64,000 nucleotides of DNA, from NCBI GenBank assembly GCA_963666565.1, contig OY762911.1:4192001-4256000 (forward strand). The letters run 5' to 3'. Below, in pieces: positions 26,704-61,942 of this stretch (position 1 is its first letter; each line of letters starts with the position of its first letter). A program made the translations under genes and the position numbers. Under the pieces are notes generated by a model. It was not told where the DNA came from and ran no database searches. It saw only the letters and a program-made list of their open reading frames with translations. The stretch comes from Thermoanaerobaculia bacterium (GTDB taxonomy: Bacteria; Acidobacteriota; Thermoanaerobaculia; Multivoradales; Multivoraceae).

Positions 26704-28032
26704 TTGCCCCCTTCGCCCGCCATGGCCGCCGCGCGAGCGCTTTCCGCCGCCGTGACGCCGCTCCGGGCGGGCCTGTTCGGCCTGGCCGCCGTCACCGCCT
26801 GCCAAACGACAGGACCACAGCCTCCAGGAATCGCGGTCCACATGTCCCCACCGAGACCGGCAGACCCGGCAGCAGCCGCGCCCGTGCTGCGCGACGGACC
26901 GCCTGAAGCGGCCGGCTTCGACCCGGAACGCCTGCGCCACGCAGCCGACCTGCTGGACAAGGCCGTCGCGGAGGGCGTCACGCCCGGCGGCGTCCTCCTG
27001 GTGGCCCGCCGCGGCACGGTCGTCCTCGAACACGGAGCCGGCTGGCTGACCCGCGACAGCGAGGCGCCCGCCGTCACCCCGTCCACCATCTACGACCTCG
27101 CCTCGCTGACCAAGGTCATCGCGACCACCGCCCTCGTCATGCGCCGCGTCGAGGCGGGCGACCTCCAGCTCGACGCCGCAGCCGCCTCGTATCTACCCGA
27201 ACTCGAAGAATCGCCCGTCGGCGGCGCCACGCTGCGGGACCTGCTGGCCCATTCGAGCGGCCTTCCCTGCTGCACCGAGTTCTTCCGCGAACTGGGCGAA
27301 GGCGTCGACCGGGACGAGGCCCGCGCCCACTACCTGGATCACATCGCCGCCGCGGGACTCGAAGCAGGGCCGCGCGAACGGGCGATCTACTCCGACCTGG
27401 GCGTGCTGCTTCTGGGCGAGATCCTGGAGCGCGGCGCCGGCAGGCCCCTGGACGAGCAGTTCCACGACGAGATCGCCGGTCCGCTCGGCCTCGAGTCGCT
27501 CTCCTACACGCCGGACCTGGGGCTCCTCGACCGGATCGCCCCGACCGAGGTCGACTCCTGGCGCGGCCTCCTCGTCCACGGCGAGGTCCACGACGAGAAC
27601 ACCCATGCGTTGGGCGGCATCGCCCCGCACGCGGGCCTGTTCGGCACCGCCCGCGATGTCGCGACCTTCGCCCAGGCGATGCTGAACGGCGGCGCCTACG
27701 GCCCGGCCCGGGTCGCGAGCGCCAGAACGGTCGCCCTCTTCACCCGCCGCGCAGGCCTCGTCCCCGGCAGCAGCCGCGCGCTGGGCTGGGACACGCCGTC
27801 CGAGCCAAGCTCCGCCGGCCGCTACTTCTCGACCCGCTCCTACGGCCACACCGGCTTCACCGGGACCTCGCTCTGGATCGACCCGGAACTGGACCTGATC
27901 GTCGTTCTGCTGACCAACCGGGTCCATCCGACCCGCGAGAACGTCGCGATCCGCGGGCTGCGGCCGGCGATCCACGACGCCGTCGCCCTGGCCATCGAGG
28001 ACGCGAAGATCGAGCCGCGCGAAGACGCTTGA
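26704..28032 (+). CDS. Serine hydrolase (class C beta-lactamase-related) lipoprotein; start TTG26704 or ATG26722
   Basis: Lipobox VTAC; YDLASLTK, YSD, GEVHDEN, HAGLF, GHTGFTGT. Confidence 0.9.
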   Translation: MPPSPAMAAARALSAAVTPLRAGLFGLAAVTACQTTGPQPPGIAVHMSPPRPADPAAAAPVLRDGPPEAAGFDPERLRHAADLLDKAVAEGVTPGGVLLVARRGTVVLEHGAGWLTRDSEAPAVTPSTIYDLASLTKVIATTALVMRRVEAGDLQLDAAAASYLPELEESPVGGATLRDLLAHSSGLPCCTEFFRELGEGVDRDEARAHYLDHIAAAGLEAGPRERAIYSDLGVLLLGEILERGAGRPLDEQFHDEIAGPLGLESLSYTPDLGLLDRIAPTEVDSWRGLLVHGEVHDENTHALGGIAPHAGLFGTARDVATFAQAMLNGGAYGPARVASARTVALFTRRAGLVPGSSRALGWDTPSEPSSAGRYFSTRSYGHTGFTGTSLWIDPELDLIVVLLTNRVHPTRENVAIRGLRPAIHDAVALAIEDAKIEPREDA

Positions 28033-28430
28033 AGGCGGCCGCCCAGCGGCAGCGTCCCGACGTTTGCCGAAGGCTCGACCACAGGCGCGCCGGACCTTGA
28101 GTCGACCACGATTCCGCTGACGAGCCGCGCCGACCCGACACGGCACCGCCCAAAGCTCCGCTCGGCGGTCGACGACACGGTGCTCCCGGCACTCGAAGAC
28201 GCCACCGTCGAACCCGGCTACGCCGGCTGAAACGGCGGGCGCAGGCACCGATCGTCGCCGCAAGCCCGCCACCATCTCGCCACACGTGAGCGGGCACGCT
28301 CCACGATCATGCGATCTCCACGCCCCGCTCGCGGTCTCATCGACGAGTGTCGGCTGGCATCTTCACCGTTTACACACTGATTACCTCATTCGTACACGTA
28401 TTCGCCACTCTCGGTTTGTATCATCCCCGG

Positions 28431-31400
28431 GTGGTTTCTGATAAGGGGAGAAGGCTTCCGCGGATCGCGGATCGCGGATCGCGGATCGCGGATCGCGGAT
28501 CGCGGATCGCGGATCGCGGATCGCGGATCGCGGATCGCGGATCGCGGATCCGTCGCACGCACCGCCAGCGGGTGACGACGATGCGGCGTCCCGCACGCTG
28601 GCGCAACACCGTTGCGTCACGGCCCAGGCGACGGGAGATGGCCTCCTCCAGTAGGGCCACGGGCCACGACGGAGACGGCGCCGGTCGTGGCGGGAACGCC
28701 CGGAACCGGCGGCGAACGGCTACGCCCGGAAACCGCGCGAAGCCGGACCTCCGCAGCGCCGGCGCACGCCTGAAACGGGCGCTTGCCCTGGCGTGCCTGT
28801 CAGCGCCGTGGTCGGCTGTTCCCCTAGCCGCCCAGACGCCCGACATCACGATCCACGAGATCAACCAGAACAGCGCGAAGGTCACTATCGCGGGCTACGA
28901 CGAGGCCTTCTTCCACCGGCAACGTGGCACAACCACATGCAGCCTCTACAGATACAGCAAGCTCACCAATCTGACCGCTGACACCAGCTACACCTACGAC
29001 TTCTTCGACACCCCCGGGCAGTGCAACTCCGGCTCATTGGGCAGCGCCACCTTCAGGACCCTCAAGTACTCGATGACTGTATCGCACAGCACCTACAGTT
29101 TCGTCCAGTTGACCCTCGGCGCGGACGTGAGCTGGTCCTACCAGGTGAGATCGCCCACCGTCGGCACCTGCTTCAACCAGGCGAAGAGCACCAAAGGAAG
29201 GCTGACTGGCCTGCAAGGCGGCACCTATTACCAAGCGAACGCGTACGCTCAACCGAATTGCGCCGGAAACCGCGTCGCCGCGGCGTACTTCACGACCCTG
29301 CCCCAGCCCACGCTCACCGCGAGCAGCGTGGAGGCCACCAGCGCCACGCTGACCATCGGCCACTGGGCCGACCAGTGGTCCATCAAGAAGACGACGGACA
29401 CGAACTGCGCCTCCATACACAACGGCACGACATTCAGCGCCGTCGGTCTCTCCGAGGGAACGTCCTATACCTACAAGGCCTATCGGACCGATTGCAGCAG
29501 CGAACTCGCCACCGAGACCTTCCTCACCAAGCCGGCGAAGACCACCGGCCTGTCCGCCGCCAGCCGCGCCAGGAGCCTCTATGTCTCATGGGATGCAATG
29601 ACCGGCGCCGCGAGCTACAAGGTGCAGTGGAAGTCGGGCACGGACAACTTCGGCACATCGCGCCAGAACACCGTCTCCTCCGGCACCAGCCACACCATCA
29701 CCGGCCTCACCAACGACACCACCTACACCGTCCGCGTCGCCGCGGTCAACGCCACCGGCGACGGCGCCTGGTCGGACGAGGTGTCGCGACCGGCGAAAGC
29801 GGTCACGCTCACCGCGAGCAACGTGGCGGAAGTCACCGCGACGCTGACCATCGCCAACTGGGGAGGGACGTGGTACCACAAGTACACCTCCCCAAGCGGC
29901 GGCACCTGCACGGCCGAAACGACGCTGGCGGCGTCGCTCACCACCACGGAGAACACGTCCTACACCTGGAAGGCCTACAGCGACTCCGGCTGCACAACGG
30001 AAATCGGCAGCGAGACCTTCAAGACGGTCTGGATCTCCGTCAACAGCAATACGGTCGGACATACCATCGCGCAGTTGGCCAATACCGGATGGTCGGGCAA
30101 TTGGTGGTCCAAGGGCGATCAGAGCGGCGCCACTTGCACCAGGGAAACCAGCTCGGTCGCCATCCTGAGGAACCTCACCAAGAACACGACCTACACCTAT
30201 ACGGGGTATCGGGCGGCCGGCTGCAACGCTGCAGACAAGATCGGCGATGCGACCTTCACGACCCTGGATTCGACCTACCTCTCGGCAACGAACAAGACGG
30301 AGTCCAAGTCGACGCTCGCCATCCACAATGTGCGTCATGGGCGAAAGTGGTGGTTCAAGGCCACATACGGACCCGTGTACAGGACCTGCACTGAGGCCGG
30401 CAGATTTCCCGCGGTCTCCTCGGTGGAGTTGACCGGCTTGAGAGAGCGCGTTCAAACCCAATACAAGGCTTACGACGCGGCTGGCTGCGCTGCGGACAAC
30501 GAGATCGCCAGCCTGCTCTTCTGGACGTTGTCGTTCGACTTGAGCACGCAAACTCTGGGAGTCGTACAGCTAGCCCTAAGCAATTGGCCGTCGGGCACAT
30601 GGTGGTACAAAGGCGATCAGAGCGGCGCCACCTGCACCAGCGAGACCTCGGCGGTCGCCATTGTTCGGAACCTGGAAAAAGAAACGAGCTACACCTACAC
30701 CGCCTACGGGGCGTCCGGCTGCAACGCCGCGGACAAGATCGGCGATGCCAGCTTCACGACTTGGGGCGACACGTCGCTGACCAAAAGCAGGCTGGAGTCG
30801 ACGAGCGTCCGGCTGCACTTGAACTATGTACGGGGCAGTACGCGGTGGTCCATCAAGGGCTCCCAGAGCGGCGACAAGTGCCGCGCGCTAGGCCAAGCCC
30901 ATTTCAACTGGGCAGACGTCACGGGCTTGACGGGGAACAGCAGCTATACCTACAAGGCGTACTCCTACGTCAACACTGATTGGCCCAATGTCTGCCGCGA
31001 CGCCAAGGAACTCGCCAACCTGACCTTCACGACCAAGCCGCCGAAACCCGCCAAGCCGACCACGACCAACGCTGGCAGCGGCAAGCTCACACTGGCGTCG
31101 TCGGTGGGCGGCGACGCGGCACTGACCAAATGGCAATTCAAGAAGTGGGCCCGAGGCACTTGGGATGCCAACTGGACCGACGTCACCTCCACGTCGAGGA
31201 CGCTGAGCCACACCGTCACCGGGCTGAGCGACCACAGGCCCGTCGCGTTCAAGGTTCAGGCGGTAAACGCCTCGGGCACGAGCGCGGAGTCCGCCCAGTC
31301 CCTCTATGCGTACCCCAGCGCCGCCCATCTGAAGGCGACCAACGTCAGCGCCTCTGGCGCGACACTCACCATTCAGTCCTGGACGCTGGCATGGTGGTAC

Positions 31401-34400
31401 CAGGGCAACCAGACCAACGCGGCCTGCACTTCGGTGGCCGCCAACACGAGCACTGCCACCCTGTCGAGTCTGGATGCCGGCACGGACTACACCTACAAGG
31501 CGTACTCCAAAGCGGGGTGCGCCGATGCGGACCAGATCGCCGCCCGGGGTTTCACGACCATACCGGCGAAGACCACGGGCGTCTCGACCGCGGCCTTGCA
31601 CCAGAAGCTCAAGGTGTCGTGGAACTCGATGGCTGGCGCCACGAGCTACAAGGTGCAGTGGAAGTCCGGCGCCCAGAACTACGACTCCGCCCGCTCCGCG
31701 ACCGTCAGCGGCACGAGCCACACCATCACCGGCCTCACCAACAGCACCGAGTACACCATGCAGGTCGCCGCCGTCAACGGCAGCGGCGACGGCGCATGGT
31801 CCGACGAGGCGAAAGGCACGCCCACCACGCCAACCCTCGCCGCCAGCGGCGTCACCGCCTCGGGCGCGACCCTCACCATCGGCAACTACACGGACGCATG
31901 GTGGTACAAGGGCAACCAGACCAACGCGGCCTGCACTTCGGTGGCCGCCGGCACGGCGTCTGCCACGCTGTCGGGCCTCGACGCCGGCACCAGCTACATC
32001 TACAAGGCGTACGCCACAGCCGGCTGCGACGCGATCTACCTGCTCGCCACCGCCACATCCTTCCTGACTCTGCCGGCGAAGACCACCGGCGTATCGGCAA
32101 CGGCGGCGAATACGTCGCTCAGCGTGTCATGGACCGCGGTCGCCAGCGCGACCAGCTACAAGGTGCAGTGGAAATCGGGCACCGAGCAGTACAACACCGG
32201 CAACCGGCAGGCAACGGTGACCAGCGGCACGCAACACACCATCACCGGCCTTGCCAACGGCACGGAGCACACCGTGCGCGTCACCGCCGTCAACGGCACC
32301 GGCGCCGGCGCCCCGTCCGACGAAGCGAAGGGCACCCCCACCGGCCCCACCCTGACCGCCGAAACCGTCCTTCAGAAGCAGGCCCGGCTGGCGATGTCCA
32401 ACTGGTCGGGGGATTGGTGGGTCAAGGGCGAACAGAACGGCGCCACCTGCATCAAGGGCACGACCAACACCGGCAAGGTCCAGTTCTCCGGGCTCACGGC
32501 CTCCACCACGTACACCTACAACGCCTACAGCGCTTCCGGCTGCGCCGCGAGCAACAAGATCACGCACGTGACCTTCACCACCCTCGCGCCGATTGCGCTC
32601 GCCTCCTCCAACATCACCACAACCAGCGCCACCCTGACCCTGTCGAATCTTGCCGGCGCCAGCGGCTGGCGCTACCAAGGCACCCAGAGCGGCGCGACCT
32701 GCACGTTGGACACCGACGCGGGCACGCAGAAGACCGCCGACATCACCGGCCTGGACGCGGGAACGTCCTACACGTACAACGCCTACGCCACGACCGACAT
32801 CCACTGCAACACGTCGATCGCCAGCCATACGTTCACGACGCTGCCGGCGAAGACCACGGGCGTTGCGGCGAAGACGCTCAGCGAGAAGCTGAAGATCACT
32901 TGGACGGCGGTGACCAGCGCGACGAGCTACAAGGTGCAGTGGAAATCGGGCGCCCAGAACTACGACTCGACCCGTCAGGCGACCGTCAGCAGCGGCACCG
33001 AATACACGATCACCGGCCTCACCAACGCCACCACCTACACGATCCAGGTCGCCGCGACCAACGGCAGCGGCGACGGCGCGTGGTCCGACGAGGCGACGGG
33101 CACCCCGGCGGCGGTCACGCTGACGGCGTCCAGCATCGGCTCGACCACCGCCACACTCACGATCGGCAACTACTCGGGCAACTGGTACTACAAGCACACC
33201 TCGCCATCCACCGGACCGGGAGCTTCCTGCTCCACCAGCGCCGTCACTGCGACGACGAAGGATCTGTCGAGCCTTGCGACCGGCACCAGCTACACGTATG
33301 CGGCTTACAGCGACAGTGCCTGCACTACGTTGCTGGCGACAGCGACGGCGTTCACCACCAAGCCGGGCAAGGTCGCGAACGTTGCCGCCACGGCGGCCCA
33401 CAATGCGCTGGATGTCGATTGGGACGCCGAGACGGGGGCAACGTCGTACAAGGTCCAGTGGAAGTCGGGAGTGCAAACCTGGGACGCCACCAACCGCCAG
33501 CAGACCTCCAGCACCGACTCCACGACCATCTCGACGTTGACCAACGGCACGCAGTACACCATCCGCGTCGCGGCGGTGAACGGCACCGGCGACGGCGAAT
33601 GGTCGGACGAGGCAACCGGCACCCCGGCCATCACGCTGACGGTGTCGGCCATCGAGGCCACCACGGCAACGCTGACGATCAGCGACCACAGCAGCGGCTG
33701 GTATTACAAGTACACGACCCCCAACGGCGGCACCTGCTCTTCGCAAGTCTCCACCGCCTCGACCAGCGTCACGTCGCTGGCGACCGGCACGAGCCACACG
33801 TTCAAGGCCTACAGCGACAGTACCTGCACGACGGTGACCGCCACCGCCACGGCATTCACCACCAAGCCCGGCAAGGTGTCGAACGTCTCGACCACGGCAG
33901 CGAGCAAGGCGCTGGATGTCGATTGGGACGCGGAGACGGGGGCCACGTCGTACAAGATTCAGTGGAAGTCGGGAGCTCAGACCTGGGACGCCACCAACCG
34001 GCAGCAAACCTCCACCACCACATCCACGACCCTTTCAACCCTCATCAACGGGACCCAGTACACGATCCGCGTGGCGGCGGTGAACGGCAGCGGCAACGGC
34101 GCCTGGTCCGACGAGGCGACCGGCACTCCGGCCGTCTCACTGACGGTGTCCGCCATCGAAGCCAGCTCGGCGACGCTGACGATCAACGACCACAGCGGCG
34201 GGTGGTACTACAAGTACACGATCCCCAGCGCCGGCACTTGCTCTTCGCAGGTCTCCACCGCCTCGACCAGCGTCACGTCGCTGGCGACCGGCACGAGCCA
34301 CACCTTCAAGGCCTACAGCGACAGCGCCTGCACCACGGAACTCGCGACGGCAACGGCGTTCACCACCAAGCCCGGCAAGGTGTCGAACGTTGCGACCACG

Positions 34401-37400
34401 GCAGCGAGCAAGGCGCTGGATGTCGATTGGGACGCGGAGACGGGGGCCACGTCGTACAAGATTCAGTGGAAGTCCGGAGCGCAGACCTGGGATGCCACCA
34501 ACCGGCAGCAAACCTCCACCACCACATCCACGACCCTTTCAACCCTCATCAACGGGACCCAGTACACGATCCGCGTGGCGGCGGTGAACGGCAGCGGCGA
34601 CGGCGCATGGTCCGACGAGGCGACCGGGACCCCGGCCGTCTCACTGACGGTGTCCGCCATCGAAGCCACCTCGGCGACGCTGACGATCAGCGACCACAGC
34701 GGCGGCTGGTACTACAAATACACGTCCCCCGTTGGCGGCACGTGTTCCTCGCTCGTCTCCACCGCCTCGACCAGCGTCTCGTCGCTGGCAACCGGCACGA
34801 GCCACACGTTCAAGGCCTACAGCGACAGCGTTTGCAGCACCGAGGTTGCGGCGGCGACGGCGTTCACCACCAAGCCGGGCAAGGTCTCGAACGTTGCCAC
34901 CACGGCCGCCCACGACGTGCTGGACGTGAGCTGGGATGCGGAAACCGGTGCAACTTCCTACAAGATCCAGTGGAAGTCGGGGGCGCAGACCTGGGACGCC
35001 GCCAACCGCCAAGAGACCTCCACCACCACTTCCAAGACGATCTCGGGCCTCAGCTATCCGACCAGCTACACCCTGCGCGTGGCGGCCGCGAACGGCAGCG
35101 GCGACGGCGAATGGTCCGACGAGGCGACGGGCACGCCGGCGGCGCCCTCACTGTCTGCCGGGTCGATCACCGAGACCGGCGCCACCCTGACCATCGCCAA
35201 CCACACCGGCAACTGGTACCACAAACAGACGGCCCCGAGCGCCGGCACCTGCTCGTCGGCGGTCAGCGGCGCAAGCGCCGACCTCTCGACGCTCACCGGC
35301 GGCACCGCCTACACCTGGAAGGCGTATAGCGACAGCACCTGCGCGACGGAACTCGCCAGCGAGACCTTCACCACGGTTTCGTTCACGGCGACCTCGGTGA
35401 CAGCGGTTTCGGCGACGCTGAACATCGGCAACTGGAGCAGCCCCTGGTGGTACTCGGCCGTTGGGAACTCAAGCTGCTTGTCCGTGGCTGGCGGCACATC
35501 GACGGCGGATCTTTCGAACCTCGTCGAGTCCACGGACTACAGCTTCGAAGCGTTCAGCGCGTCCGGTTGTGCGTCTGCGAACAAGATTGCCGACGTGAGC
35601 TTCAGGACCCTCTCGACCGTGACCCTGGCGGCCAGCGACATCACGGAAACCTCGGCGACCCTGACCATCTCCGTCAACAGCAACGACGTGACTCTTGAAC
35701 AGATTTTCAAGACGTTTGGCTGGCGTCACAAGCAAGGAACAACCTGCACGCAGGTTTCGCCGGGGTTGACGGCAGCCTTGAGCACCCTGACGGGCGGCAC
35801 CTCCTACAGCTACAGCGGCCATTTGATCACGGACACGAACTGCTCCAGCACCGCGTTCGCCACCGACACGTTCACGACGCTGTCGCTGGCGGCGGGTTCC
35901 ATCACCACGAGCACGGCGAAGCTGACGCTCGGCAACTACAGTGGAAGCTGGTGGTACAAGGGCAGTCAGGCCGGCGCCACCTGCACATCGGCTGGCACCG
36001 GCATCACCGCAGACCTCGCCAGCCTGGACGACGCCACCAACTACACCTACACCGCCTACGACGCTTCCACCTGCGCATCGAGCGCGAAGATCGCGGACGT
36101 CGACTTCACCACCCTCACCGCCCCCGGTTTCACGTTCACACCCACCAGCGTCACGGTGACGGAGGGCTCGACGGCGACCTACACGGTGAAGCTGGCGACC
36201 AAGCCGACCGCCAGCGTCACCGTCACGATCGCCCGCAGCACGACGGGCACCCAGGACGCGGACCTGAGCGTCAAGACCGGCGGCTCGCTCACCTTCACCA
36301 CCGACAACTGGAACACGGCGCAGACGGTCACGCTGGAGGCGAAGGAGGACGACGACGGCGACGCCGGCACGGCCGACATCGCGCACACGGCGAGCGGCGG
36401 GGGCTACGGCAGCGTCACGGGAACCGTCACGGCGACGGAGGACGACAACGACACGAAGGGTTTCACCTTCTCCGCCTCCAACGTCTCCGTGACGGAGGGC
36501 TCCACCGCCACCTACAAGGTCAAGCTGGCGACCAAGCCGTCCGCCAGCGTCACCGTGACGATTGCGCGAAGCACCACCGGCACCCAGGACGCGGACCTGA
36601 GCGTCAAGACCGGCGGCTCGCTCACCTTCACCACCGACAACTGGGACACGGACCAGACCGTGACGCTCGAGGCCAAGGAGGACGACGACGGCGACGCTGG
36701 CACGGCGGACATCGCGCACACCGCCAGCGGCGGGGGCTACGGAAGCGCGACCGGCACGGTGACCGCCACCGAGTCGGACAACGACACCAAGGGCTTCACC
36801 TTCTCGTCGTCCAACGTCTCGGTCACCGAGGGCTCCACGGCCACCTACAAGGTCAAGCTGGCGACCGAGCCCACCGCCAGCGTCACCGTCACCGTCGCGC
36901 GGAGCAGCACCGGCGCGCAGGACTCGGACCTGAGCGTCAAGACCGGCGGGACCCTCACCTTCACCACCGACAACTGGGACACGGACCAGACGGTAACGCT
37001 CGAAGCCAAGGAGGACGACGACGGAGACGACGGCACCGCCGACATCGCCCACAGCGCCACCGGCGGTGGTTACGGCAGCGTCACCGGCAGCGTCACCGCG
37101 ACCGAGGACGACAACGACACCAAGGGCTTCACCTTCTCGTCGTCCAACGTCTCGGTCACCGAGGGCTCGACCGCCACCTACCAGGTCAAGCTCGCCACCG
37201 AGCCCACCGCCAGCGTCACCGTCACCGTGGCGCGAAGCACCACCGGCACCCAGGACGCGGACCTGAGCGTGAAGACCGGCGGCTCGCTCACCTTCACCAC
37301 CGACAACTGGGACACCGACCAGACCGTGACGCTCGAAGCCAAGGAGGACGACGACGGCGACGACGGCACCGCCGACATCTCGCACACCGCCAGCGGCGGG

Positions 37401-40400
37401 GGCTACGGAAGCGCGACCGGCACGGTGACCGCCACGGAGTCGGACAACGACACGAAGGGCTTCACCTTCTCCGCGTCCAACGTCTCCGTGACGGAAGGCT
37501 CCACCGCCACCTACAAGGTCAAGCTGGCGACCAAGCCGTCCGCCAGCGTCACCGTGACGATTGCGCGAAGCACCACCGGCACCCAGGACGCGGACCTGAG
37601 CGTCAAGACCGGCGGCTCGCTCACCTTCACCACCGACAACTGGAACACGGACCAGACCGTGACCCTGGAGGCGAAGGAGGACGACGACGGAGACGCCGAC
37701 ACCGCCGACATCGCTCACACCGCCAGCGGCGGAGGCTACGGCAGCGTCACCGGCACGGTGACCGCAACTGAGTCGGACAACGACACGAAGGGCTTCACCT
37801 TCTCCGCGTCCAACGTCTCCGTGACGGAAGGCTCTACCGCCACCTACAAGGTCAAGCTCAAGACGAAGCCCTCCGCCAGCGTCACCGTGACCGTCGCGCG
37901 GAGCACGACCGGCACACAGGACTCGGACCTGAGCGTCAAGACCGGCGGCTCGCTCACCTTCACCACCGACAACTGGGACACCGACCAGACCGTGACGCTC
38001 GAGGCCAAGGAAGACGACGACGGCGACGCTGGACGGCGGACATCGCGCACACCGCCAGCGGCGGAGGCTACGGAAGCGTCACCGGCACAGTCACCGCTAG
38101 TGAGTCGGACAACGACGCGAAGGGCTTCACCTTCTCCGCATCGAACGTGAGCGTGACCGAGGGCTCCACCGCCACCTACAAGGTGAAGCTGGCGACCAAG
38201 CCGTCCGCCAGCGTCACCGTGACGATTGCGCGAAGCACCACCGGCACCCAGGACGCGGACCTGAGCGTCAAGACCGGCGGCTCGCTCACCTTCACCACCG
38301 ACAACTGGGACACCGACCAGACCGTCACGCTGGAGGCCAAGGAGGACGACGACGGCGACGACGGCACCGCCGACATCTCGCACACCGCCAGCGGCGGGGG
38401 CTACGGAAGCGTCACCGGCACAGTCACCGCCACCGAGTCGGACAACGACACCAAGGGCTTCACCTTCTCCGCATCGAACGTGAGCGTGACTGAGGGCTCG
38501 ACGGCCACCTACAAGGTGAAGCTGGCGACCAAGCCGTCCGCCAGCGTCACCGTGACGATTGCGCGAAGCACCACCGGCACCCAGGACGCGGACCTGAGCG
38601 TGAAGACCGGCGGCTCGCTCACCTTCACGACCGACAACTGGGACACCGACCAGACCGTCACGCTGGAGGCCAAGGAGGACGACGACGGCGACGACGGCAC
38701 CGCCGACATCTCGCACACCGCCAGCGGCGGGGGCTACGGAAGCGCGACCGGCACGGTGACCGCCACCGAGTCGGACAACGACACCAAGGGCTTCACCTTC
38801 TCGTCGTCCAACGTCTCGGTCACCGAGGGCTCCACGGCCACCTACAAGGTCAAGCTGGCGACCGAGCCCACGGCCAGCGTCACCGTCACCGTCGCGCGGA
38901 GCAGCACCGGCGCGCAGGACTCGGACCTGAGCGTCAAGACCGGCGGGACCCTCACCTTCACCACCGACAACTGGGACACGGACCAGACGGTAACGCTCGA
39001 AGCCAAGGAGGACGACGACGGAGACGACGGCACCGCCGACATCGCCCACAGCGCCACCGGCGGTGGTTACGGCAGCGTCACCGGCAGCGTCACCGCGACC
39101 GAGGACGACAACGACACCAAGGGCTTCACCTTCTCGTCGTCCAACGTCTCGGTCACCGAGGGCTCGACCGCCACCTACCAGGTCAAGCTCGCCACCGAGC
39201 CCACCGCCAGCGTCACCGTCACCGTGGCGCGAAGCACCACCGGCACCCAGGACGCGGACCTGAGCGTGAAGACCGGCGGCTCGCTCACCTTCACCACGGA
39301 CAACTGGGACACCGACCAGACCGTGACGCTCGAAGCCAAGGAGGACGACGACGGCGACGACGGCACCGCCGACATCTCGCACACCGCCAGCGGCGGGGGC
39401 TACGGAAGCGCGACCGGCACGGTGACCGCCACGGAGTCGGACAACGACACGAAGGGCTTCACCTTCTCCGCGTCCAACGTCTCCGTGACGGAAGGCTCCA
39501 CCGCCACCTACAAGGTCAAGCTGGCGACCAAGCCGTCCGCCAGCGTCACCGTGACGATTGCGCGAAGCACCACCGGCACCCAGGACGCGGACCTGAGCGT
39601 CAAGACCGGCGGCTCGCTCACCTTCACCACCGACAACTGGAACACGGACCAGACCGTGACCCTGGAGGCGAAGGAGGACGACGACGGAGACGCCGGCACC
39701 GCCGACATCGCTCACACCGCCAGCGGCGGAGGCTACGGCAGCGTCACCGGCACGGTGACCGCAACTGAGTCGGACAACGACACGAAGGGCTTCACCTTCT
39801 CCGCGTCCAACGTCTCCGTGACGGAAGGCTCTACCGCCACCTACAAGGTCAAGCTCAAGACGAAGCCCTCCGCCAGCGTCACCGTGACCGTCGCGCGGAG
39901 CACGACCGGCACACAGGACTCGGACCTGAGCGTCAAGACCGGCGGCTCGCTCACCTTCACCACCGACAACTGGGACACCGACCAGACCGTGACGCTCGAG
40001 GCCAAGGAAGACGACGACGGCGACGCTGGCACGGCGGACATCGCGCACACCGCCAGCGGCGGAGGCTACGGAAGCGTCACCGGCACAGTCACCGCTAGTG
40101 AGTCGGACAACGACGCGAAGGGCTTCACCTTCTCCGCATCGAACGTGAGCGTGACCGAGGGCTCCACCGCCACCTACAAGGTGAAGCTGGCGACCAAGCC
40201 GTCCGCCAGCGTCACCGTGACGATTGCGCGAAGCACCACCGGCACCCAGGACGCGGACCTGAGCGTCAAGACCGGCGGCTCGCTCACCTTCACCACCGAC
40301 AACTGGGACACCGACCAGACCGTCACGCTGGAGGCCAAGGAGGACGACGACGGCGACGACGGCACCGCCGACATCTCGCACACCGCCAGCGGCGGGGGCT

Positions 40401-43400
40401 ACGGAAGCGTCACCGGCACAGTCACCGCCACCGAGTCGGACAACGACACCAAGGGCTTCACCTTCTCCGCATCGAACGTGAGCGTGACTGAGGGCTCGAC
40501 GGCCACCTACAAGGTGAAGCTGGCGACCAAGCCGTCCGCCAGCGTCACCGTGACGATTGCGCGAAGCACCACCGGCACCCAGGACGCGGACCTGAGCGTC
40601 AAGACCGGCGGCTCGCTCACCTTCACCACCGACAACTGGGACACCGACCAGACCGTCACGCTGGAGGCCAAGGAGGACGACGACGGCGACGACGGCACCG
40701 CCGACATCTCGCACACCGCCAGCGGCGGGGGCTACGGAAGCGCGACCGGCACGGTGACCGCCACCGAGTCGGACAACGACACCAAGGGCTTCACCTTCTC
40801 CGCGTCGAACGTGTCGGTGACGGAAGGCTCGACGGCGACCTACACGGTCAAGCTGGCGACCAAGCCGACCGCCAGCGTCACGGTCACCGTCGCCCGCAGC
40901 ACCGCCGGCACGCAGGACGCGGACCTGAGCGTCAAGACCGGCGGCTCGCTCACCTTCACCACCGACAACTGGAGCACCGCCCAGACCGTCACGCTGGAGG
41001 CGAAGGAAGACGACGACGGCGACGACGGCACGGCGGACATCGCGCACACCGCCAGCGGCGGAGGCTACGGCAGCGTCACGGGAAACGTCACGGCGACGGA
41101 GGACGACAACGACACGAAGGGCTTCACCTTCTCCGCGTCGAACGTCTCGGTGACGGAGGGCTCCACCGCCACCTACAAGGTCAAGCTGGCGACCAAGCCG
41201 TCCGCCAGCGTCACCGTGACGGTTGCGCGAAGCACCACCGGCACACAGGACTCGGACCTGAGCGTGAAGACCGGCGGCTCGCTCACCTTCACGACCGACA
41301 ACTGGAACACCGACCAGACCGTCACCCTCGAAGCCAAGGAGGACGACGACGGCGACGACGGCACGGCCGACATCGCCCACACCGCCAGCGGCGGCGGCTA
41401 CGGCAGCGCGACCGGCACGGTGACCGCCACGGAGTCGGACAACGACACCAAGGGCTTCACCTTCTCCGCCTCCAACGTCTCCGTGACGGAAGGCTCTACC
41501 GCCACCTACAAGGTCAAGCTCAAGACGAAGCCCTCCGCCAGCGTCACCGTGACGATTGCGCGAAGCACCACCGGCACCCAGGACGCGGACCTGAGCGTCA
41601 AGACCGGCGGCTCGCTCACCTTCACCACCGACAACTGGGACACCGACCAGACCGTGACGCTCGAGGCCAAGGAAGACGACGACGGCGACGACGACACCGC
41701 CGACATCGCTCACACCGCCAGCGGCGGAGGCTACGGCAGCGTCACCGGCACGGTGACCGCAACGGAGTCGGACAACGACACCAAGGGCTTCACCTTCTCC
41801 GCCTCCAACGTCTCCGTGACGGAGGGCTCCACCGCCACCTACAAGGTCAAGCTGGCGACCAAGCCGTCCGCCAGCGTCACCGTGACGGTTGCGCGAAGCA
41901 CCGCCGGCACACAGGACTCGGACCTGAGCGTGAAGACCGGCGGCTCGCTCACCTTCACGACCGACAACTGGAACACCGACCAGACCGTCACCCTCGAAGC
42001 CAAGGAGGACGACGACGGCGACGACGGCACCGCCGACATCGCGCACACCGCCAGCGGCGGGGGCTACGGAAGCGCGACCGGCACGGTGACCGCCACCGAG
42101 TCGGACAACGACACCAAGGGCTTCACCTTCTCCGCGTCCAACGTCTCCGTGACGGAAGGCTCTACCGCCACCTACAAGGTCAAGCTCAAGACGAAGCCCT
42201 CCGCCAGCGTCACGGTCACCGTCGCGCGGAGCACGACCGGCACGCAGGACTCGGACCTCAGCGTCAAGACCGGCGGCTCGCTCACCTTCACCACCGACAA
42301 CTGGGACACCGACCAGACCGTCACCCTGGAGGCCAAGGAAGACGACGACGGCGACGACGGCACCGCCGACATCGCGCACACCGCCAGCGGCGGGGGCTAC
42401 GGAAGCGCGACCGGCACGGTGACCGCAACGGAGTCGGACAACGACACGAAGGGCTTCACCTTCTCCGCGTCCAACGTCTCCGTGACGGAAGGCTCTACCG
42501 CCACCTACAAGGTCAAGCTCAAGACGAAGCCCTCCGCCAGCGTCACCGTGACGATTGCGCGAAGCACGACCGGCACGCAGGACGCGGACCTCAGCGTCAA
42601 GACCGGCGGCTCGCTTACCTTCACCACCGACAACTGGGACACCGACCAGACGGTCACCCTGGAAGCCAAGGAGGACGACGACGGCAACGACGGCACCGCC
42701 GACATCGCCCACACGGCGACCGGCGGCGGCTACGGCAGCGTGACCGGCAGCATCACCGCCACGGAGTCGGACAACGACGCGAAGGGCTTCACCTTCACCC
42801 CCACCAGCGTTTCGGTGACGGAGGGGTCCAGCGCCACCTACAAGGTCAAGCTCAAGACCAAGCCCACGGCCAGCGTCACCGTGACCGTCGCGCGGAGCAC
42901 GACCGGCACGCAGGACTCGGACCTGAGCGTCAAGACCGGCGGCTCGCTCACCTTCACCACCGACAACTGGGACACCGACCAGACCGTCACCCTGGAGGCG
43001 AAGGAGGACGACGACGGCGACGACGGCACCGCCGACATCGCGCACACCGCCAGCGGCGGCGGCTACGGAAGCGCGACGGGAACCGTCACGGCAACGGAGG
43101 ACGACAACGACACGAAGGGCTTCACCTTCTCCGCCTCCAACGTCTCCGTGACTGAGGGCTCGACGGCCACCTACACGGTGAAGCTGGCGACCGAGCCCTC
43201 GGCGAGCGTCACGGTGACCGTCGCCCGCAGCACTACCGGCACGCAGGACACGGACCTCAGCGTGAAGACCGGCGGCTCGCTGACCTTCACCACCGACAAC
43301 TGGGACACCGACCAGACCGTCACGCTGGAGGCGAAGGAAGACGACGACGGCGACAACGGCACGGCGGACATCGCGCACACGGCGAGCGGCGGCGGCTACG

Positions 43401-46400
43401 GCAGCGTCACCGGCACGGTGACCGCCACGGAGTCGGACAACGACACCAAGGGCTTCACCTTCTCCGCGTCGAACGTGACGGTGACGGAGGGCTCAACGGC
43501 GACCTACACGGTGAAGCTGGCGACCAAGCCCACGGCCAGCGTCACCGTGACCGTCGCGCGGAGCACGACCGGCACCCAGGACTCGGACCTGAGCGTGAAG
43601 ACCGGCGGCTCGCTGACCTTCACCACCTCCAACTGGGACACCGCCCAGACCGTCACCCTGGAGGCGAAGGAGGACGACGACGGAGACGACGGCACGGCGG
43701 ACATCGGGCACACGGCCAGCGGCGGGGGCTACGGCAGCGTCACCGGCAGCATCACCGCCACGGAGGACGACAACGACGCGAAGGGCTTCACCTTCTCCGC
43801 ATCGAACGTGAGCGTGACCGAGGGCTCGACGGCCACCTACACGGTGAAGCTGGCGACCGAGCCCTCGGCGAGCGTCACGGTCACCGTCGCCCGCAGCACC
43901 GCCGGCACGCAGGACACGGACCTCAGCGTCAAGACCGGCGGCTCGCTCACCTTCACCACCGACAACTGGAGCACCGCCCAGACCGTCACGCTGGAGACGA
44001 AGGAAGACGACGACGGCGACGCTGGCACGGCCGACATCGCGCACACGGCCAGCGGCGGAGGCTACGGAAGCGTCACGGGAACCGTCACGGCGACGGAGGA
44101 CGACAACGACACGAAGGGCTTCACCTTCTCCGCCTCCAACGTCTCCGTGACGGAGGGCTCCACCGCCACCTACAAGGTCAAGCTGGCGACCAAGCCGTCC
44201 GCCAGCGTCACCGTGACGGTTGCGCGAAGCACCACCGGCACCCAGGACTCGGACCTGAGCGTGAAGACCGGCGCGTCGCTGACTTTCACCACCGACAACT
44301 GGGACACGGACCAGACCGTGACGCTGGAGGCCAAGGAAGACGACGACGGCGACGACGGCACCGCCGACATCGCCCACACCGCCAGCGGCGGCGGCTACGG
44401 CAGCGTCACGGGAAGCCTGACGGCCACGGAGGACGACAACGACGCGAAGGGCTTCACGTTCTCCGCTTCGAACGTGACGGTGACGGAGGGTTCGACGGCG
44501 ACCTACACGGTCAAGCTCGCGACCAAGCCGACCGCCAGCGTCACCGTGACCGTCGCCCGCAGCACGACCGGCACGCAGGACGCGGACCTCAGCGTCAAGA
44601 CCGGCGGCTCGCTTACCTTCACCACCGACAACTGGGACACCGACCAGACGGTCACCCTGGAAGCCAAGGAGGACGACGACGGCAACGACGGCACCGCCGA
44701 CATCGCCCACACGGCGACCGGCGGCGGCTACGGCAGCGTGACCGGCAGCATCACCGCCACGGAGTCGGACAACGACGCGAAGGGCTTCACCTTCACCCCC
44801 ACCAGCGTTTCGGTGACGGAGGGGTCCAGCGCCACCTACAAGGTCAAGCTCAAGACCAAGCCCACGGCCAGCGTCACCGTGACCGTCGCGCGGAGCACGA
44901 CCGGCACCCAGGACTCGGATCTCAGCGTCAAGACCGGCGGCTCGCTCACCTTCACCACCTCCAACTGGGACACGGACCAGACCGTCACCCTGGAGGCGAA
45001 GGAGGACGACGACGGCGACGCCGGCACGGCCGACATCGCGCACACGGCGAGCGGCGGGGGCTACGGCAGCGTCACCGGCAGCGTCACGGCCACGGAGTCG
45101 GACAACGACACCAAGGGCTTCACCTTCTCCGCGTCGAACGTCTCGGTGACGGAGGGCTCCACCGCCACCTACAAGGTCAAGCTCAAGACGAAGCCCTCCG
45201 CCAGCGTCACCGTGACGATTGCGCGAAGCACCACCGGCACACAGGACGCGGACCTGAGCGTGAAGACCGGCGGCTCGCTCACCTTCACCACCGACAACTG
45301 GAGCACCGCCCAGACCGTCACGCTGGAGGCCAAGGAGGACGACGACGGCAACGACGGCACCGCCGACATCGCCCACACCGCCAGCGGCGGAGGCTACGGA
45401 AGCGTCACCGGCACAGTCACCGCTACTGAGTCGGACAACGACGCGAAGGGCTTCACGTTCTCCGCATCGAACGTGAGCGTGACTGAGGGCTCGACGGCCA
45501 CCTACACGGTGAAGCTGGCGACCAAGCCGTCCGCCAGCGTCACCGTGACGGTTGCGCGAAGCACCACCGGCACCCAGGACGCGGACCTGAGCGTGAAGAC
45601 CGGCGGCTCGCTGACGTTCACGACCGGCAACTGGAGCACGGCGCAGACGGTCACGCTGGAGGCAAAGGAGGACGACGACGGCGACGCTGGCACGGCCGAC
45701 ATCGCGCACACGGCCAGCGGCGGAGGCTACGGAAGCGTCACGGGAACCGTCACGGCGACGGAGGACGACAACGACACGAAGGGCTTCACCTTCTCCGCAT
45801 CGAACGTGAGCGTGACGGAGGGCTCCACCGCCACCTACAAGGTCAAGCTGGCGACCGAGCCCTCGGCGAGCGTCACGGTCACCGTCGCCCGCAGCACCGC
45901 CGGCACGCAGGACACGGACCTCAGCGTCAAGACCGGCGGCTCGCTCACCTTCACCACCGACAACTGGGACACCGACCAGACCGTCACCCTGGAGGCGAAG
46001 GAGGACGACGACGGCGACGACGGCACCGCCGACATCGCCCACACCGCCAGCGGCGGCGGCTACGGCAGCGTCACGGGAAGCCTGACGGCCACGGAGGACG
46101 ACAACGACGCGAAGGGCTTCACGTTCTCCGCTTCGAACGTGACGGTGACGGAGGGTTCGACGGCGACCTACACGGTCAAGCTAGCGACCAAGCCGACCGC
46201 CAGCGTCACCGTGACCGTCGCCCGCAGCACGACCGGCACGCAGGACGCGGACCTCAGCGTCAAGACCGGAGGCTCGCTGACCTTCACCACCGACAACTGG
46301 GACACCGACCAGACGGTCACCCTGGAAGCCAAGGAGGACGACGACGGCAACGACGGCACCGCCGACATCGCCCACACGGCGACCGGCGGCGGCTACGGCA

Positions 46401-49400
46401 GCGTGACCGGCACGGTGACCGCCACGGAGTCGGACAACGACGCGAAGGGCTTCACCTTCACCCCCACCAGCGTTTCGGTGACGGAGGGGTCCAGCGCCAC
46501 CTACAAGGTCAAGCTCAAGACCAAGCCCACGGCCAGCGTCACCGTGACCGTCGCGCGGAGCACGACCGGCACGCAGGACTCGGACCTGAGCGTCAAGACC
46601 GGCGGCTCGCTCACCTTCACCACCGACAACTGGGACACCGACCAGACCGTCACGCTGGAGGCGAAGGAGGACGACGACGGAGACGACGGCACGGCCGACA
46701 TCGCCCACACGGCGACCGGCGGCGGCTACGGCAGCGTGACCGGCAGCATCACCGCGACGGAGGACGACAACGACACCAAGGGCTTCACCTTCTCCGCCTC
46801 CAACGTCTCCGTGACGGAGGGCTCCACCGCCACCTACAAGGTCAAGCTCAAGACGAAGCCCTCCGCCAGCGTCACCGTGACGATTGCGCGAAGCACCACC
46901 GGCACCCAGGACGCGGACCTGAGCGTCAAGACCGGCGGCTCGCTCACCTTCACCACCGACAACTGGGACACGGACCAGACCGTGACGCTCGAAGCCAAGG
47001 AGGACGACGACGGCGACGCCGGCACGGCGGACATCGCGCACACCGCCAGCGGCGGAGGCTACGGCAGCATCACCGGCACGGTGACCGCAACTGAGTCGGA
47101 CAACGACGCGAAGGGCTTCACCTTCTCGGCGTCCAACGTTTCGGTCACCGAGGGCTCGACCGCCACCTACAAGGTCAAGCTGGCGACCAAGCCGTCCGCC
47201 AGCGTCACCGTGACGATTGCGCAAAGCACCACCGGCACGCCGGACACGGACCTCAGCGTCAAGACCGGCGGCTCGCTCACCTTCACCACCGACAACTGGG
47301 ACACCGACCAGACCGTCACGCTGGAGGCCAAGGAGGACGACGACGGAGACGACGGCACGGCCGACATCGCCCACACGGCGACCGGCGGCGGCTACGGCAG
47401 CGTGACCGGCAGCATCACCGCGACGGAGGACGACAACGACACCAAGGGCTTCACGTTCTCCGCCTCCAACGTGAGCGTGACCGAGGGCTCGACGGCCACC
47501 TACACGGTGAAGCTGGCGACCGAGCCCTCGGCGAGCGTCACGGTCACCGTCGCCCGCAGCACCGCCGGCACGCAGGACACGGACCTCAGCGTCAAGACCG
47601 GCGGCTCGCTCACCTTCACCACCGACAACTGGGACACCGACCAGACCGTCACGCTGGAGGCGAAGGAGGACGACGACGGAGACGACGGCACGGCCGACAT
47701 CGCCCACACGGCGACCGGCGGCGGCTACGGCAGCGTGACCGGCAGCATCACCGCGACGGAGGACGACAACGACACCAAGGGCTTCACCTTCTCCGCCTCC
47801 AACGTCTCCGTGACGGAGGGCTCCACCGCCACCTACAAGGTCAAGCTCAAGACGAAGCCCTCCGCCAGCGTCACCGTGACGATTGCGCGAAGCACCACCG
47901 GCACCCAGGACGCGGACCTGAGCGTCAAGACCGGCGGCTCGCTCACCTTCACCACCGACAACTGGGACACGGACCAGACCGTGACGCTCGAAGCCAAGGA
48001 GGACGACGACGGCGACGCCGGCACGGCGGACATCGCGCACACCGCCAGCGGCGGAGGCTACGGCAGCATCACCGGCACGGTGACCGCAACTGAGTCGGAC
48101 AACGACGCGAAGGGCTTCACCTTCTCGGCGTCCAACGTTTCGGTCACCGAGGGCTCGACCGCCACCTACACGGTCAAGCTCAAGACCGAGCCCACCGCCA
48201 GCGTCACCGTGACCGTCGCGCGCAGCACGACCGGCACCCAGGACTCGGACCTGAGCGTGAAGACCGGCGCGTCGCTGACTTTCACCACTGACAACTGGGA
48301 CACCGACCAGACCGTCACCCTGGAAGCCAAGGAAGACGACGACGGAGACGACGGCACCGCCGACATCGCTCACACGGCGAGCGGCGGCGGCTACGGCAGC
48401 GCGACGGGCACCGTCACCGCCACCGAGTCGGACAACGACACGAAGGGCTTCACCTTCTCGGCGTCCAACGTCTCGGTCACCGAGGGCTCGACCGCCACCT
48501 ACAAGGTCAAGCTCAAGACCGAGCCCTCCGCCAGCGTCACGGTCACCGTCGCGCGCAGCACCACCGGCGCCCAGGACTCGGACCTGAGCGTGAAGACCGG
48601 CGGCTCGCTCACCTTCACCACCGACAACTGGGACACGGACCAGACCGTGACGCTGGAGGCCAAGGAAGACGACGACGGCGACGACAGCACCGCCGACATC
48701 GCCCACACCGCCAGCGGCGGCGGCTACGGAAGCGTCACCGGCACCGTCGCGGCGACCGAGGACGACAACGACGCGAAGGGCTTCACCTTCTCGGCGTCCA
48801 ACGTCTCGGTCACCGAGGGCTCGACCGCCACCTACAAGGTCAAGCTGGCGACCGAGCCCTCGGCGAGCGTCACGGTGACCGTCGCGCGGAGCACGACCGG
48901 CACGCAGGACTCCGATCTGAGCGTCAAGACCGGCGGCTCGCTCACCTTCACCACCGACAACTGGGACACGGACCAGACGGTGACGCTCGAAGCCAAGGAA
49001 GACGGCGACGGCCTCGACGGCACGGCGGTCATCGTCCACACCGCCTCCGGCGGCGGGTACGGATCGGTCACCGCCGAGCTGACGGCGACCGAGGACGACA
49101 ACGACCGAGGACTCACGCTGTCGGCCAACACCGCAACGGTGACCGAAGGCGCCACCAAGGACTACACCGTCAAGCTCGCCACCAAACCCACCGCCAGCGT
49201 CACGGTCACCGTCGCCCGCAAGGCCGCCGGCACGCAGGACGCGGACATCAGCGTCAAGACCGGCTCTTCCCTCACCTTCACCACCTCCAACTGGAACACC
49301 GCTCAGACCGTCACCCTGGAGGCCAAGGAAGACCACGACGGGGACGACGGCACGGCGGTGATCGTGCATACGGCAAGCGGCGGCGGCTACGGCTCCGTTA

Positions 49401-61075: not shown

Positions 61076-61218
61076 CTGGGTGCGAGGTTCTTCGGCGCCG
61101 CCCGCGGGCGGCGCCGCGGAGCGGCGCAACCCGGACGACAGGGCCGGCGGCAGCGGGTCGGAAGACCCGCGCACCCAGCGGACCCTACGGCGTCAGCGGG
61201 TCGGAGGAGCGGCCCACC
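61076..61218. repeat. Degenerate family A REPIN plus a degenerate hairpin overlapping the UDG 3' end
   Basis: Intact hairpin 61153-61170; degenerate arms at 61076-61101 and 61196-61218. Confidence 0.75.
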
Positions 61219-61922
61219 GGCAAGGCGGGTAGTTGGACCCCGAGGCGTCGCAGGTCCCGCTCCGCCCGCTCCTCCCAGCCGCGGTTCGCCGCGGGACTGG
61301 CCGGGCTCGGGTGCAGCATCCGGCCGACCGGCAAGTCGAGATCCGCCAGCGCGCGCCGCGCCCGGCCTTCCGCGAACGCGCCGACGCCGACGACGAGCCG
61401 CGGTTCCAGCGCCTCCACGCCCTGGCGCAGCGCCCGGTCGCAGGCCGCGAACAGCGGCGCCTTCTCCCCCGCCGGCAGCCGGTCCGGCGTCAGGTTCGCG
61501 CCGCCCTCAAGAAGGAAGGCGAGCGGACAGTAATTCCAGACCAGGAACCGCTCGAAGAACGCGGCCGGCGTCCCGAAGCGCCGCGCCGCCCAACCCCAGA
61601 CGCGACGGCCGCTGACCTCGCTGCGCGGACAGTCGAAGCCCTGGATCGGCCGCTTCGGGTGCTGGCTGGCGGGCGGCTCCACGCCGTCCGCGATCCCCAG
61701 CCAGTCGCGGACGTGGGCCACCTCGCCGAACGGCACGCCGGTCTGGCTCATGCCCCAGGGGCCCGGGTTCATTCCCAGCAGCAGCACGCGGCCGGGCGCC
61801 GGGCCGGCGAGACGGAGGTAGGCATGGTGAGCCGCCCGCGCGTAGACCAGCGGGTTGTATACGTGCGCGACCGGCGGCCCGAACTCGAGTCCGCCGGCCT
61901 CGCGGGCCAAGTCGTCCGCCAC
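61185..61922 (-). CDS. SMUG1-family (family 3) uracil-DNA glycosylase; start uncertain
   Basis: VYNPLVYA, LGMNPGPWGMSQTGVPFG, SEVSGRR, NYCPL, LHPSPASP. Confidence 0.9.
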   Translation of the reverse strand: MADDLAREAGGLEFGPPVAHVYNPLVYARAAHHAYLRLAGPAPGRVLLLGMNPGPWGMSQTGVPFGEVAHVRDWLGIADGVEPPASQHPKRPIQGFDCPRSEVSGRRVWGWAARRFGTPAAFFERFLVWNYCPLAFLLEGGANLTPDRLPAGEKAPLFAACDRALRQGVEALEPRLVVGVGAFAEGRARRALADLDLPVGRMLHPSPASPAANRGWEERAERDLRRLGVQLPALPVGRSSDPLTP

Positions 61923-61942
61923 CGCGGTCAGTCGCGAACGCC

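Follow-up and report, generated by a model that had tools for sequence, protein, structure and literature searches.

Organization of the Adhesin Leader and Its Heptamer Tract

The 64,000-nucleotide stretch analysed here (the window; contig OY762911.1, positions 4,192,001 to 4,256,000) belongs to a Thermoanaerobaculia bacterium of the Multivoraceae, whose genome (GCA_963666565.1, hereafter G000) is one contig of 4,786,144 bp with 70% G+C and few simple repeats; near-identical proteins of genes next to the adhesin carry the label Acidobacteriota, and the genus presumably lives in sponges. The window harbors the largest gene of G000, which encodes a predicted giant adhesin, and a perfect tract of thirteen CGCGGAT heptamers lies upstream of its signal peptide. 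A sequence-only reading of the window had proposed that this tract is a phase-variation switch, placed in frame behind a leaderless start and turning the adhesin on and off by slippage. The features of the leader region are the following.

28419..28424, + strand: putative −10 hexamer TATCAT, from which transcription is predicted to start at ∼28431
28431..28433, + strand: possible leaderless start at GTG, sharing the frame of the adhesin when the tract has 13 units, proposed from sequence only
28459..28550, + strand: perfect (CGCGGAT)13 tract (13.0 units at 28459–28549 plus one C), encoding RIADRGS repeats in frame
28551..28577, + strand: predicted hairpin of −13.2 kcal/mol that encloses the Shine–Dalgarno (SD)-like GGGTGA (28570–28575), with TGA28573 inside it
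28581..28583, + strand: in-frame ATG giving an 84-aa leader, an alternative or re-initiation start, with an SD duplex of −9.1 kcal/mol
28638..28640, + strand: in-frame ATG giving a 65-aa leader, start of the public gene call, with a weaker SD (−5.2 kcal/mol)
28652..28654, + strand: TAG that, by frame analysis, is met at a unit number of 2 mod 3 after both ATGs have been run over
28779..28832, + strand: Sec-type signal peptide with a hydrophobic core and an Ala-X-Ala motif, read by eye from the translation

The sequence-only reading had placed these elements correctly: TATCAT lies at 28419–28424 and GTG28431 follows after 6 nt, the spacer being CCCCGG, with the tract at 28459–28549. The frame is open at 13 units, with GTG28431, ATG28581, and ATG28638 all in the frame of the gene, and loss or gain of a unit closes it as had been claimed, at TGA28573 with 12 units and at TAG28652 with 14. 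In silico, the frame was open into the large gene at 10, 13, and 16 units. TGA28573, the stop met when the unit number is 0 mod 3, lies within the SD of ATG28581. The expected leader of ∼130 aa ahead of the cleavage site measured 134 aa up to the likely site between LAA and Q at 28833, as judged by eye.

The tract is the sole perfect 7-mer tract of at least three units in the 4,786,144-bp genome, where the other long perfect tracts are one C15 and one intergenic 11-mer repeated eight times. Among the coding open reading frames (ORFs) of at least 1,200 aa in G000, only the adhesin has a non-triplet repeat near its 5′ end. Two hallmarks of frameshifting simple sequence repeat (SSR) contingency loci of the autA/autB, opa, and neuO type were found, namely, a perfect tract whose unit length is not a multiple of three (13 perfect 7-mers) and a product with a signal peptide, fn3 modules, and a C-terminal barrel. 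Two-unit occurrences of CGCGGAT in G000 stood at the chance level (26 observed, 25.3 expected), which shows no preference of the genome for it; a HIP1-like word bias was rejected (observed/expected ratios of 0.96–0.99). The tract folds into an imperfect hairpin of −52.7 kcal/mol by prediction and gains ∼4.6 kcal/mol with each added unit; the fold of the whole leader (z = −1.8) was not distinctive. Thirteen GATC sites lie inside the tract, the genome-wide observed/expected ratio of GATC being 1.0. Dam/GATC methylation switches of the pap and agn43 type need a solitary Dam methylase and a regulator that competes for GATC sites; G000 encodes one D12-class methylase, beside an overlapping ORF, which may or may not act on GATC. 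MutS is encoded in G000, and 7-base loops escape mismatch repair. The intergenic 11-mer tract, (GCGCTGGGTGC)8 at G000:C1:747026–747113, is perfect and sits amid short palindromic repeats clustered in intergenic DNA, where the neighboring genes are convergent.

Transcription and Candidate Translation Starts

TATCAT is the only + strand TANNNT in 28000–28830. A scan of 27900–28900 for sigma-70 promoters and terminators found nothing, and there was no −35 box. Since no other −10-type hexamer lies in the interval from the upstream gene to the signal peptide, the heptamer tract is very probably transcribed.

Start statistics were computed on a gene set of 2,901 well-scored G000 genes predicted with an own codon model. 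TANNNT stood 6 nt before 94 of 2,692 in-frame ATGs versus 7 of 2,186 out-of-frame ones genome-wide, and the same spacing was seen at 34/2,273 in-frame versus 8/3,780 out-of-frame GTGs. The enrichment sets in sharply at 6 nt and covers 6–7 nt, with a C-rich spacer after the hexamer. Six other in-frame cases were found in the window, in agreement with the pattern that the sequence-only reading had noticed at several genes, and a near-identical start, TATGAT-CCCCGG-ATG, occurs elsewhere in G000. Judged from these motif statistics, leaderless initiation is a real genome-wide feature of G000, with GTG as the minority start.

GTG28431 lacks an SD (−3.5 kcal/mol), and the 5′ end of its mRNA is predicted to be accessible (1–3 kcal/mol). 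The leaderless start proposed earlier is plausible from the genome-wide motif statistics, but it competes with the SD-led ATG28581 behind the tract, and either GTG28431 or ATG28581/28638 may be the start used. The hairpin over the SD of ATG28581 is not exceptional, as 18% of 150 sampled SD-led ATGs reach or exceed its opening energy, and predicted access to this SD and ATG is nearly constant for tracts of 4–22 units (15.5–16.0 kcal/mol). A further candidate start, GTG28347, was rejected, having neither a promoter hexamer before it nor a good SD.

Homopolymer Runs in the Leaders of Related Genes

The comparison set comprised 41 other genomes of the genus. The heptamer tract (three units, one mismatch allowed) was found in 0 of these 41, and the first 267 aa of the adhesin, used as a query, had no match in them, nor did a short-protein search yield one. 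Homologs of the C-terminal barrel were found in 39/41 genomes, with open frames of up to 12,884 aa. Among the 95 barrel matches outside G000, 40 leaders were fetched (the longest frames and three close ones) and 37 were scored; L064–L066 were left out, L065 having a C11 ∼165 nt before its open frame. Five scored loci without a true N-terminus (L036, L039, L046, L052, and L053) were dropped, and the remaining 32 leaders include L030, which the run detector had missed and which was tract-free when counted by eye.

Ten of the 32 leaders carried a C or G run of 9–26 within 450 nt of the cleavage site. Runs of at least 11 were present in 9/32, versus 0.026 expected from the run density of each genome. 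The run-bearing leaders came from 6 of 18 genomes, four of them from the genome G021, and were commoner in large genes (7/13 of those of at least 6,000 aa versus 3/19 smaller ones; Fisher p = 0.049, with kin not independent). Relatives thus appear, from their sequences, to place homopolymer runs at the leader position that the heptamer occupies here. The two closest barrel paralogs of the adhesin in G000 lack the tract. Two further layouts were seen in the relatives: a 12,264-aa gene of G046 (L042) has two similar signal-peptide segments in tandem with a G26 between them, the first being out of frame, and in G056 (L063) short 10-mer tandem repeats (×2 and ×3) lie just upstream of the barrel-gene start.

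All 36 C/G runs of at least 11 in G021 were examined (loci L221–L252, L032–L034, and L051). By eye, 20 lie in leaders of secreted proteins; restriction-modification or defence genes hold 5 (Pfam: methylase, type ISP, Eco57I/MmeI, and DUF4007), a barrel gene holds one, and the other 10 either lie between genes or could not be assigned. Five of the six barrel genes of G021 carry a C/G run. A family of nine G021 leader genes shows an SD-led ATG (∼−12 kcal/mol) followed by C14–C29, four in frame and five out. In a near-identical C19/C20 pair of this family no start lies between the run and the hydrophobic core, so this layout can act only by frame. G021 is a clearer study system than the locus of the window.

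Other candidate contingency loci were observed as well. In G000, a LuxR-family (PF00196) gene carries at its front an out-of-frame ATG and, immediately behind it, the C15 (G000:C1:63542–64199; L085); this is either another candidate contingency locus, in the OFF state in the assembly, or a homopolymer error. Poly-C runs of differing length occur at the same spot in DUF4007-like genes of three genomes and in type III-like methylase genes of two genomes (L087, L084, L237; L258, L260). In draft genomes, the ends of contigs and misassembly-like clusters hold many of the poly-C/G runs, so short-read assemblies under-report such loci.

Unit Number in Metagenomic Samples

Contigs of the locus occur in four runs, made from three samples in the same study; one of these runs is possibly the source of the window. 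Contigs, which cannot span the tract, were compared across 27700–29260. The flanks were identical in all four runs, and every contig breaks at the tract, which must then exceed 30 bp in each. The unit number was estimated by splitting the summed depth between the flanks and the collapsed cycle, and the depth-derived means were 9.6 units in S1, 12.6 and 12.7 in two runs of S2, and 11.8 in S3. Poisson simulation gave a standard deviation of ∼1.1 units, with at most 1 in 3,000 values as low as 9.6 if the true number is 13. A search of metagenome contigs with a flank-specific 20-mer returned five unrelated loci without the tract and no second allele from assemblies, and no RNA run is listed among the sequencing runs that contain the locus. 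Of the repeat-number alleles that the sequence-only reading had proposed to count, none came from the relatives, which lack the tract, while the sample depths hint, weakly, that the unit number differs between samples (∼9.6 versus 12–13).

The Adhesin Gene, Its Barrel, and Its Neighbors

The remaining features of the locus are listed below.

26704..28032, + strand: beta-lactamase-family (serine hydrolase) gene, upstream, conserved in the genus (homology)
28431..38150, + strand: adhesin piece 1, 3,239 aa, with fn3-related modules and the start of the 333-bp array (Pfam fn3 E 9e-81, 8 stretches)
36156..56725, + strand: ∼62 copies of a 333-bp (111-aa) unit, from repeat analysis
38147..51739, + strand: adhesin piece 2, an ORF of 4,530 aa of repeats
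51736..61050, + strand: adhesin piece 3, an ORF of 3,104 aa with repeats, fn3, and the C-terminal barrel
59851..61047, + strand: outer-membrane beta-barrel, autotransporter-like, with ∼16 predicted strands (PF03797, Atlas, and structure model)
61185..61931, − strand: uracil-DNA-glycosylase-superfamily gene, downstream (homology)

The product had been described as a ∼1.1-MDa adhesin. The pieces do sum to 1.107 MDa, but the assembly holds three ORFs (28347–38150, 38147–51739, and 51736–61050), a division that the earlier reading had not mentioned. Two 333-bp units, near 38,040 and 51,645 and both beside GCTGG, are one base short, and it is these that split the gene. Six frameshift-like sites were found in the whole of G000, two of them in the adhesin array, and the frameshifts are likely an assembly error in the array. 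The label "adhesin" is suggested by the architecture of the predicted protein.

An N-terminal Sec signal peptide, as in type Va autotransporters, was recognized by eye. The match of PF03797 to the barrel (E 6e-5, 23.4 bits) falls below the cut-off of 26, and 12 of the 21 barrel members in alignment A1 match this family at E ≤ 0.01. Atlas scored the barrel at 0.98, and the structure model (pLDDT 74.7) has ∼16 strands. Its best Z scores were to TamA/BamA (16.6 for TamA), with 13.1 for BrkA over residues 1–232, the part that aligns to BrkA, Hbp, and AIDA-I; Foldseek returned generic barrels only (TM 0.23–0.38). In classical type Va autotransporters, the PF03797 barrel has 12 strands and forms one polypeptide with the passenger. 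Owing to the ∼16 strands and the best match to TamA/BamA, the adhesin was not classed as a classical autotransporter. According to the model, the barrel family appears autotransporter-like over its first ∼230 residues and may represent an enlarged autotransporter barrel. A Gly-rich low-complexity linker with GGGL/GGLG repeats lies just before it (window 59400–59630).

The flanking genes adjoin directly in relatives (loci L002, L004, and L005), which indicates that the adhesin was inserted here. Three tandem secreted paralogs (∼955, 969, and 695 aa; G000:C1:2982946–2990675, − strand) share a module with the N-terminal part of the adhesin and have neither a barrel nor a repeat tract.

Proposed Mechanism and Alternative Explanations

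The locus is real and probably functional, and the class of mechanism is one already known. That the tract is an element of control whose effect depends on its length is probable. The preferred account of how it acts is that the number of units determines in which frame a leaderless leader ORF is read, with three states as the outcome; a probability of roughly 0.45 is assigned to it. Transcription would start at ∼G28431, and ribosomes would initiate on the 5′-terminal GUG. Strand slippage, a mechanism established elsewhere, would add or remove 7-base units, variation here being only hinted at. With 10, 13, or 16 units, the leader would be fused to the signal peptide as a 134-aa precursor leader, an ON state by the computed frame. 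With 9, 12, or 15 units, translation would stop, by the computed geometry, 5 nt short of ATG28581, at the TGA that forms part of its SD; such a stop could open the small hairpin and lead to coupled restart, giving an ON or intermediate state. With 8, 11, or 14 units, an out-of-frame run over both ATGs to TAG28652 would leave expression low or OFF. Cells of one population would then differ in their expression of this very costly surface protein. The account taken whole, with a three-state leaderless-GUG switch on a 1.1-MDa adhesin as part of a genus-wide contingency set (surface, restriction-modification, and regulator genes), is somewhat unlikely to hold in every part.

Several observations weigh against a frame switch at this locus. 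Few leaderless GTGs lie farther than 150 nt upstream of the point where coding begins (in-frame 4/545 versus out-of-frame 7/4,153), and among 60 called homolog leaders, with a median of 36 aa, one credible case reaches 84, although gene callers favor short starts. The in-frame state at 13 units is on its own a 1-in-3 event. Tract and leader are without homologs in the 41 other genomes of the genus, the adhesin gene is frameshifted twice as assembled, and homopolymer lengths in assemblies, on which the comparison with relatives draws, are error-prone. All ten run-bearing leaders also have an in-frame ATG or GTG behind the run, four with an SD of −7.8 kcal/mol or stronger, and two runs (L028 and L035) precede a stop in the main frame and lie outside that frame. 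As for the samples, depth does not equal copy number and includes other organisms, the simulation takes no account of library bias, and all the data come from one study; the S1 estimate is, in addition, internally inconsistent (in X1), as the two cycle contigs differ by 0.49 and not by 1.0 flank depth.

An alternative modelled on hmw1A would have translation begin at ATG28581 (or 28638), with the tract as part of an untranslated leader that lowers expression gradually as it lengthens, through RNA structure, stability, or transcription. ATG28581, behind the tract, has its own SD of −9.1 kcal/mol, a public protein collection holds a 3,170-aa piece of the adhesin that starts at 28638, the tract hairpin grows with each unit, and the homolog tracts of L028 and L035 lie outside the main frame. 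In hmw1A itself, a heptamer tract located within its 5′ untranslated region (UTR) gives more protein with 13 units than with 23 (PMC8262952). Yet access to the SD and ATG28581 is nearly flat from 4 to 22 units, a prediction that says nothing on transcription or stability; a GUG would stand first on the transcript, and leaderless starts are in use in this genome; and the G021 leader family works by frame and not as a UTR. Such a rheostat is judged unlikely. The stochastic switch proposed by the sequence-only reading is thus backed as a contingency locus by the genus-wide runs, by the in-frame and out-of-frame leaders of G021, and weakly by depth; the clean ON/OFF part of the proposal is inseparable from a 5′-UTR rheostat or coupled restart. 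The tract might also be a neutral microsatellite, grown by chance where the leader tolerates it and serving no selected role. Unrelated genomes from many phyla contain CGCGGAT tracts of at least five copies, in no fewer than 119 stretches; a crude classifier, applied to 80 of these, put 48 in intergenic DNA and 1 within a gene and left 31 unassigned. The unit thus seems, from these occurrences, to expand readily on its own, which would explain how the tract could arise, whereas its position argues that it was kept. Xanthomonas and Nostoc likewise have an excess of heptamer repeats, most of them between genes (PMC4692102), and the tract is absent from the 41 relatives and from the two closest barrel paralogs. 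On the other hand, the single G000 tract sits where relatives put homopolymer runs, a coincidence with estimated odds of ∼0.003 (own estimate from three long perfect tracts, three barrel genes, and ∼3,500 genes), and G000 shows no preference for the word; neutrality is considered quite improbable.

A third alternative is that the gene is decaying, with real one-base losses and the tract a leftover switch that would now control only a truncated, secreted 3,200-aa piece without a barrel. This fits the three ORFs in an assembly that, with just six frameshift-like sites genome-wide, is otherwise clean; internal breaks also occur in homologs L036, L039, L046, and L052, and in-phase autB genes are often disrupted downstream (PMC5118866). 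Against decay, two of the six sites fall in a 20.5-kb tandem array that makes up 0.4% of the genome. Tandem arrays are the hardest part of assemblies to correct. No in-frame stop occurs in the 10,871 codons across the three pieces, and relatives hold intact homologs of 10,000–12,900 aa. Decay has a slim chance of being correct.

Comparison with Known Repeat Switches and Implications

Known contingency loci resemble the adhesin leader in part. In autA/autB (Neisseria/Haemophilus), AAGC repeats follow the start codon within the part of an autotransporter gene that encodes the signal sequence, and slipped-strand mispairing turns the frame ON and OFF (PMC5118866). Like autA, autB, and reportedly the lav autotransporters, the adhesin would have a non-triplet repeat in the signal-sequence DNA of an autotransporter-like gene; it differs in the 7-base unit, the putative leaderless GUG, the SD-led ATG behind the tract, a cargo of ∼10,900 aa, and in being known from sequence alone. 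Heptamer units in coding regions, as proposed here, are described for neuO of E. coli K1, where the 5′ end holds (AAGACTC)n in 2–93 copies, every third unit number gives the ON state, and the encoded 7-aa repeat spans three units (PMC3046976), and for pglE of N. meningitidis (PMC7157529). These genes encode cytoplasmic glycan-modifying enzymes, whereas the repeat peptide here would lie in the cleaved leader of a surface protein. A heptamer tract of similar length, (ATCTTTC)n, is found in the transcribed leader of the large adhesin genes hmw1A and hmw2A of H. influenzae (PMC8262952); the hmw tracts are untranslated, AT-rich, and gradual in effect, whereas the present one is rich in GC, complementary to itself, and shares its frame with a start upstream. 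The heptamers of Xanthomonas (GGGAATC) and Nostoc form structures, vary in length, and are mostly intergenic (PMC4692102). CGCGGAT itself is widespread across phyla, but those heptamers are found at many places in each genome, most often directly downstream of genes, and not as a single tract between promoter and signal peptide. Heptamer slippage is also mentioned for IgA protease genes (PMC8178019). A literature search, with most subscription papers outside its reach, found no phase variation, contingency loci, or giant autotransporters reported for Acidobacteriota or sponge symbionts, and no relevant report on a leaderless start combined with a frameshift switch.

Switches of this kind easily escape notice, since gene callers choose starts beyond the tracts and short-read assemblies are interrupted there. 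If the reading is correct, the slippery unit would be swappable, poly-C/G in relatives and a heptamer here, at a position that is kept. An uncultured genus of Acidobacteriota would then hedge its megadalton surface proteins and its DNA-methylation systems with the repeat switches of mucosal pathogens.

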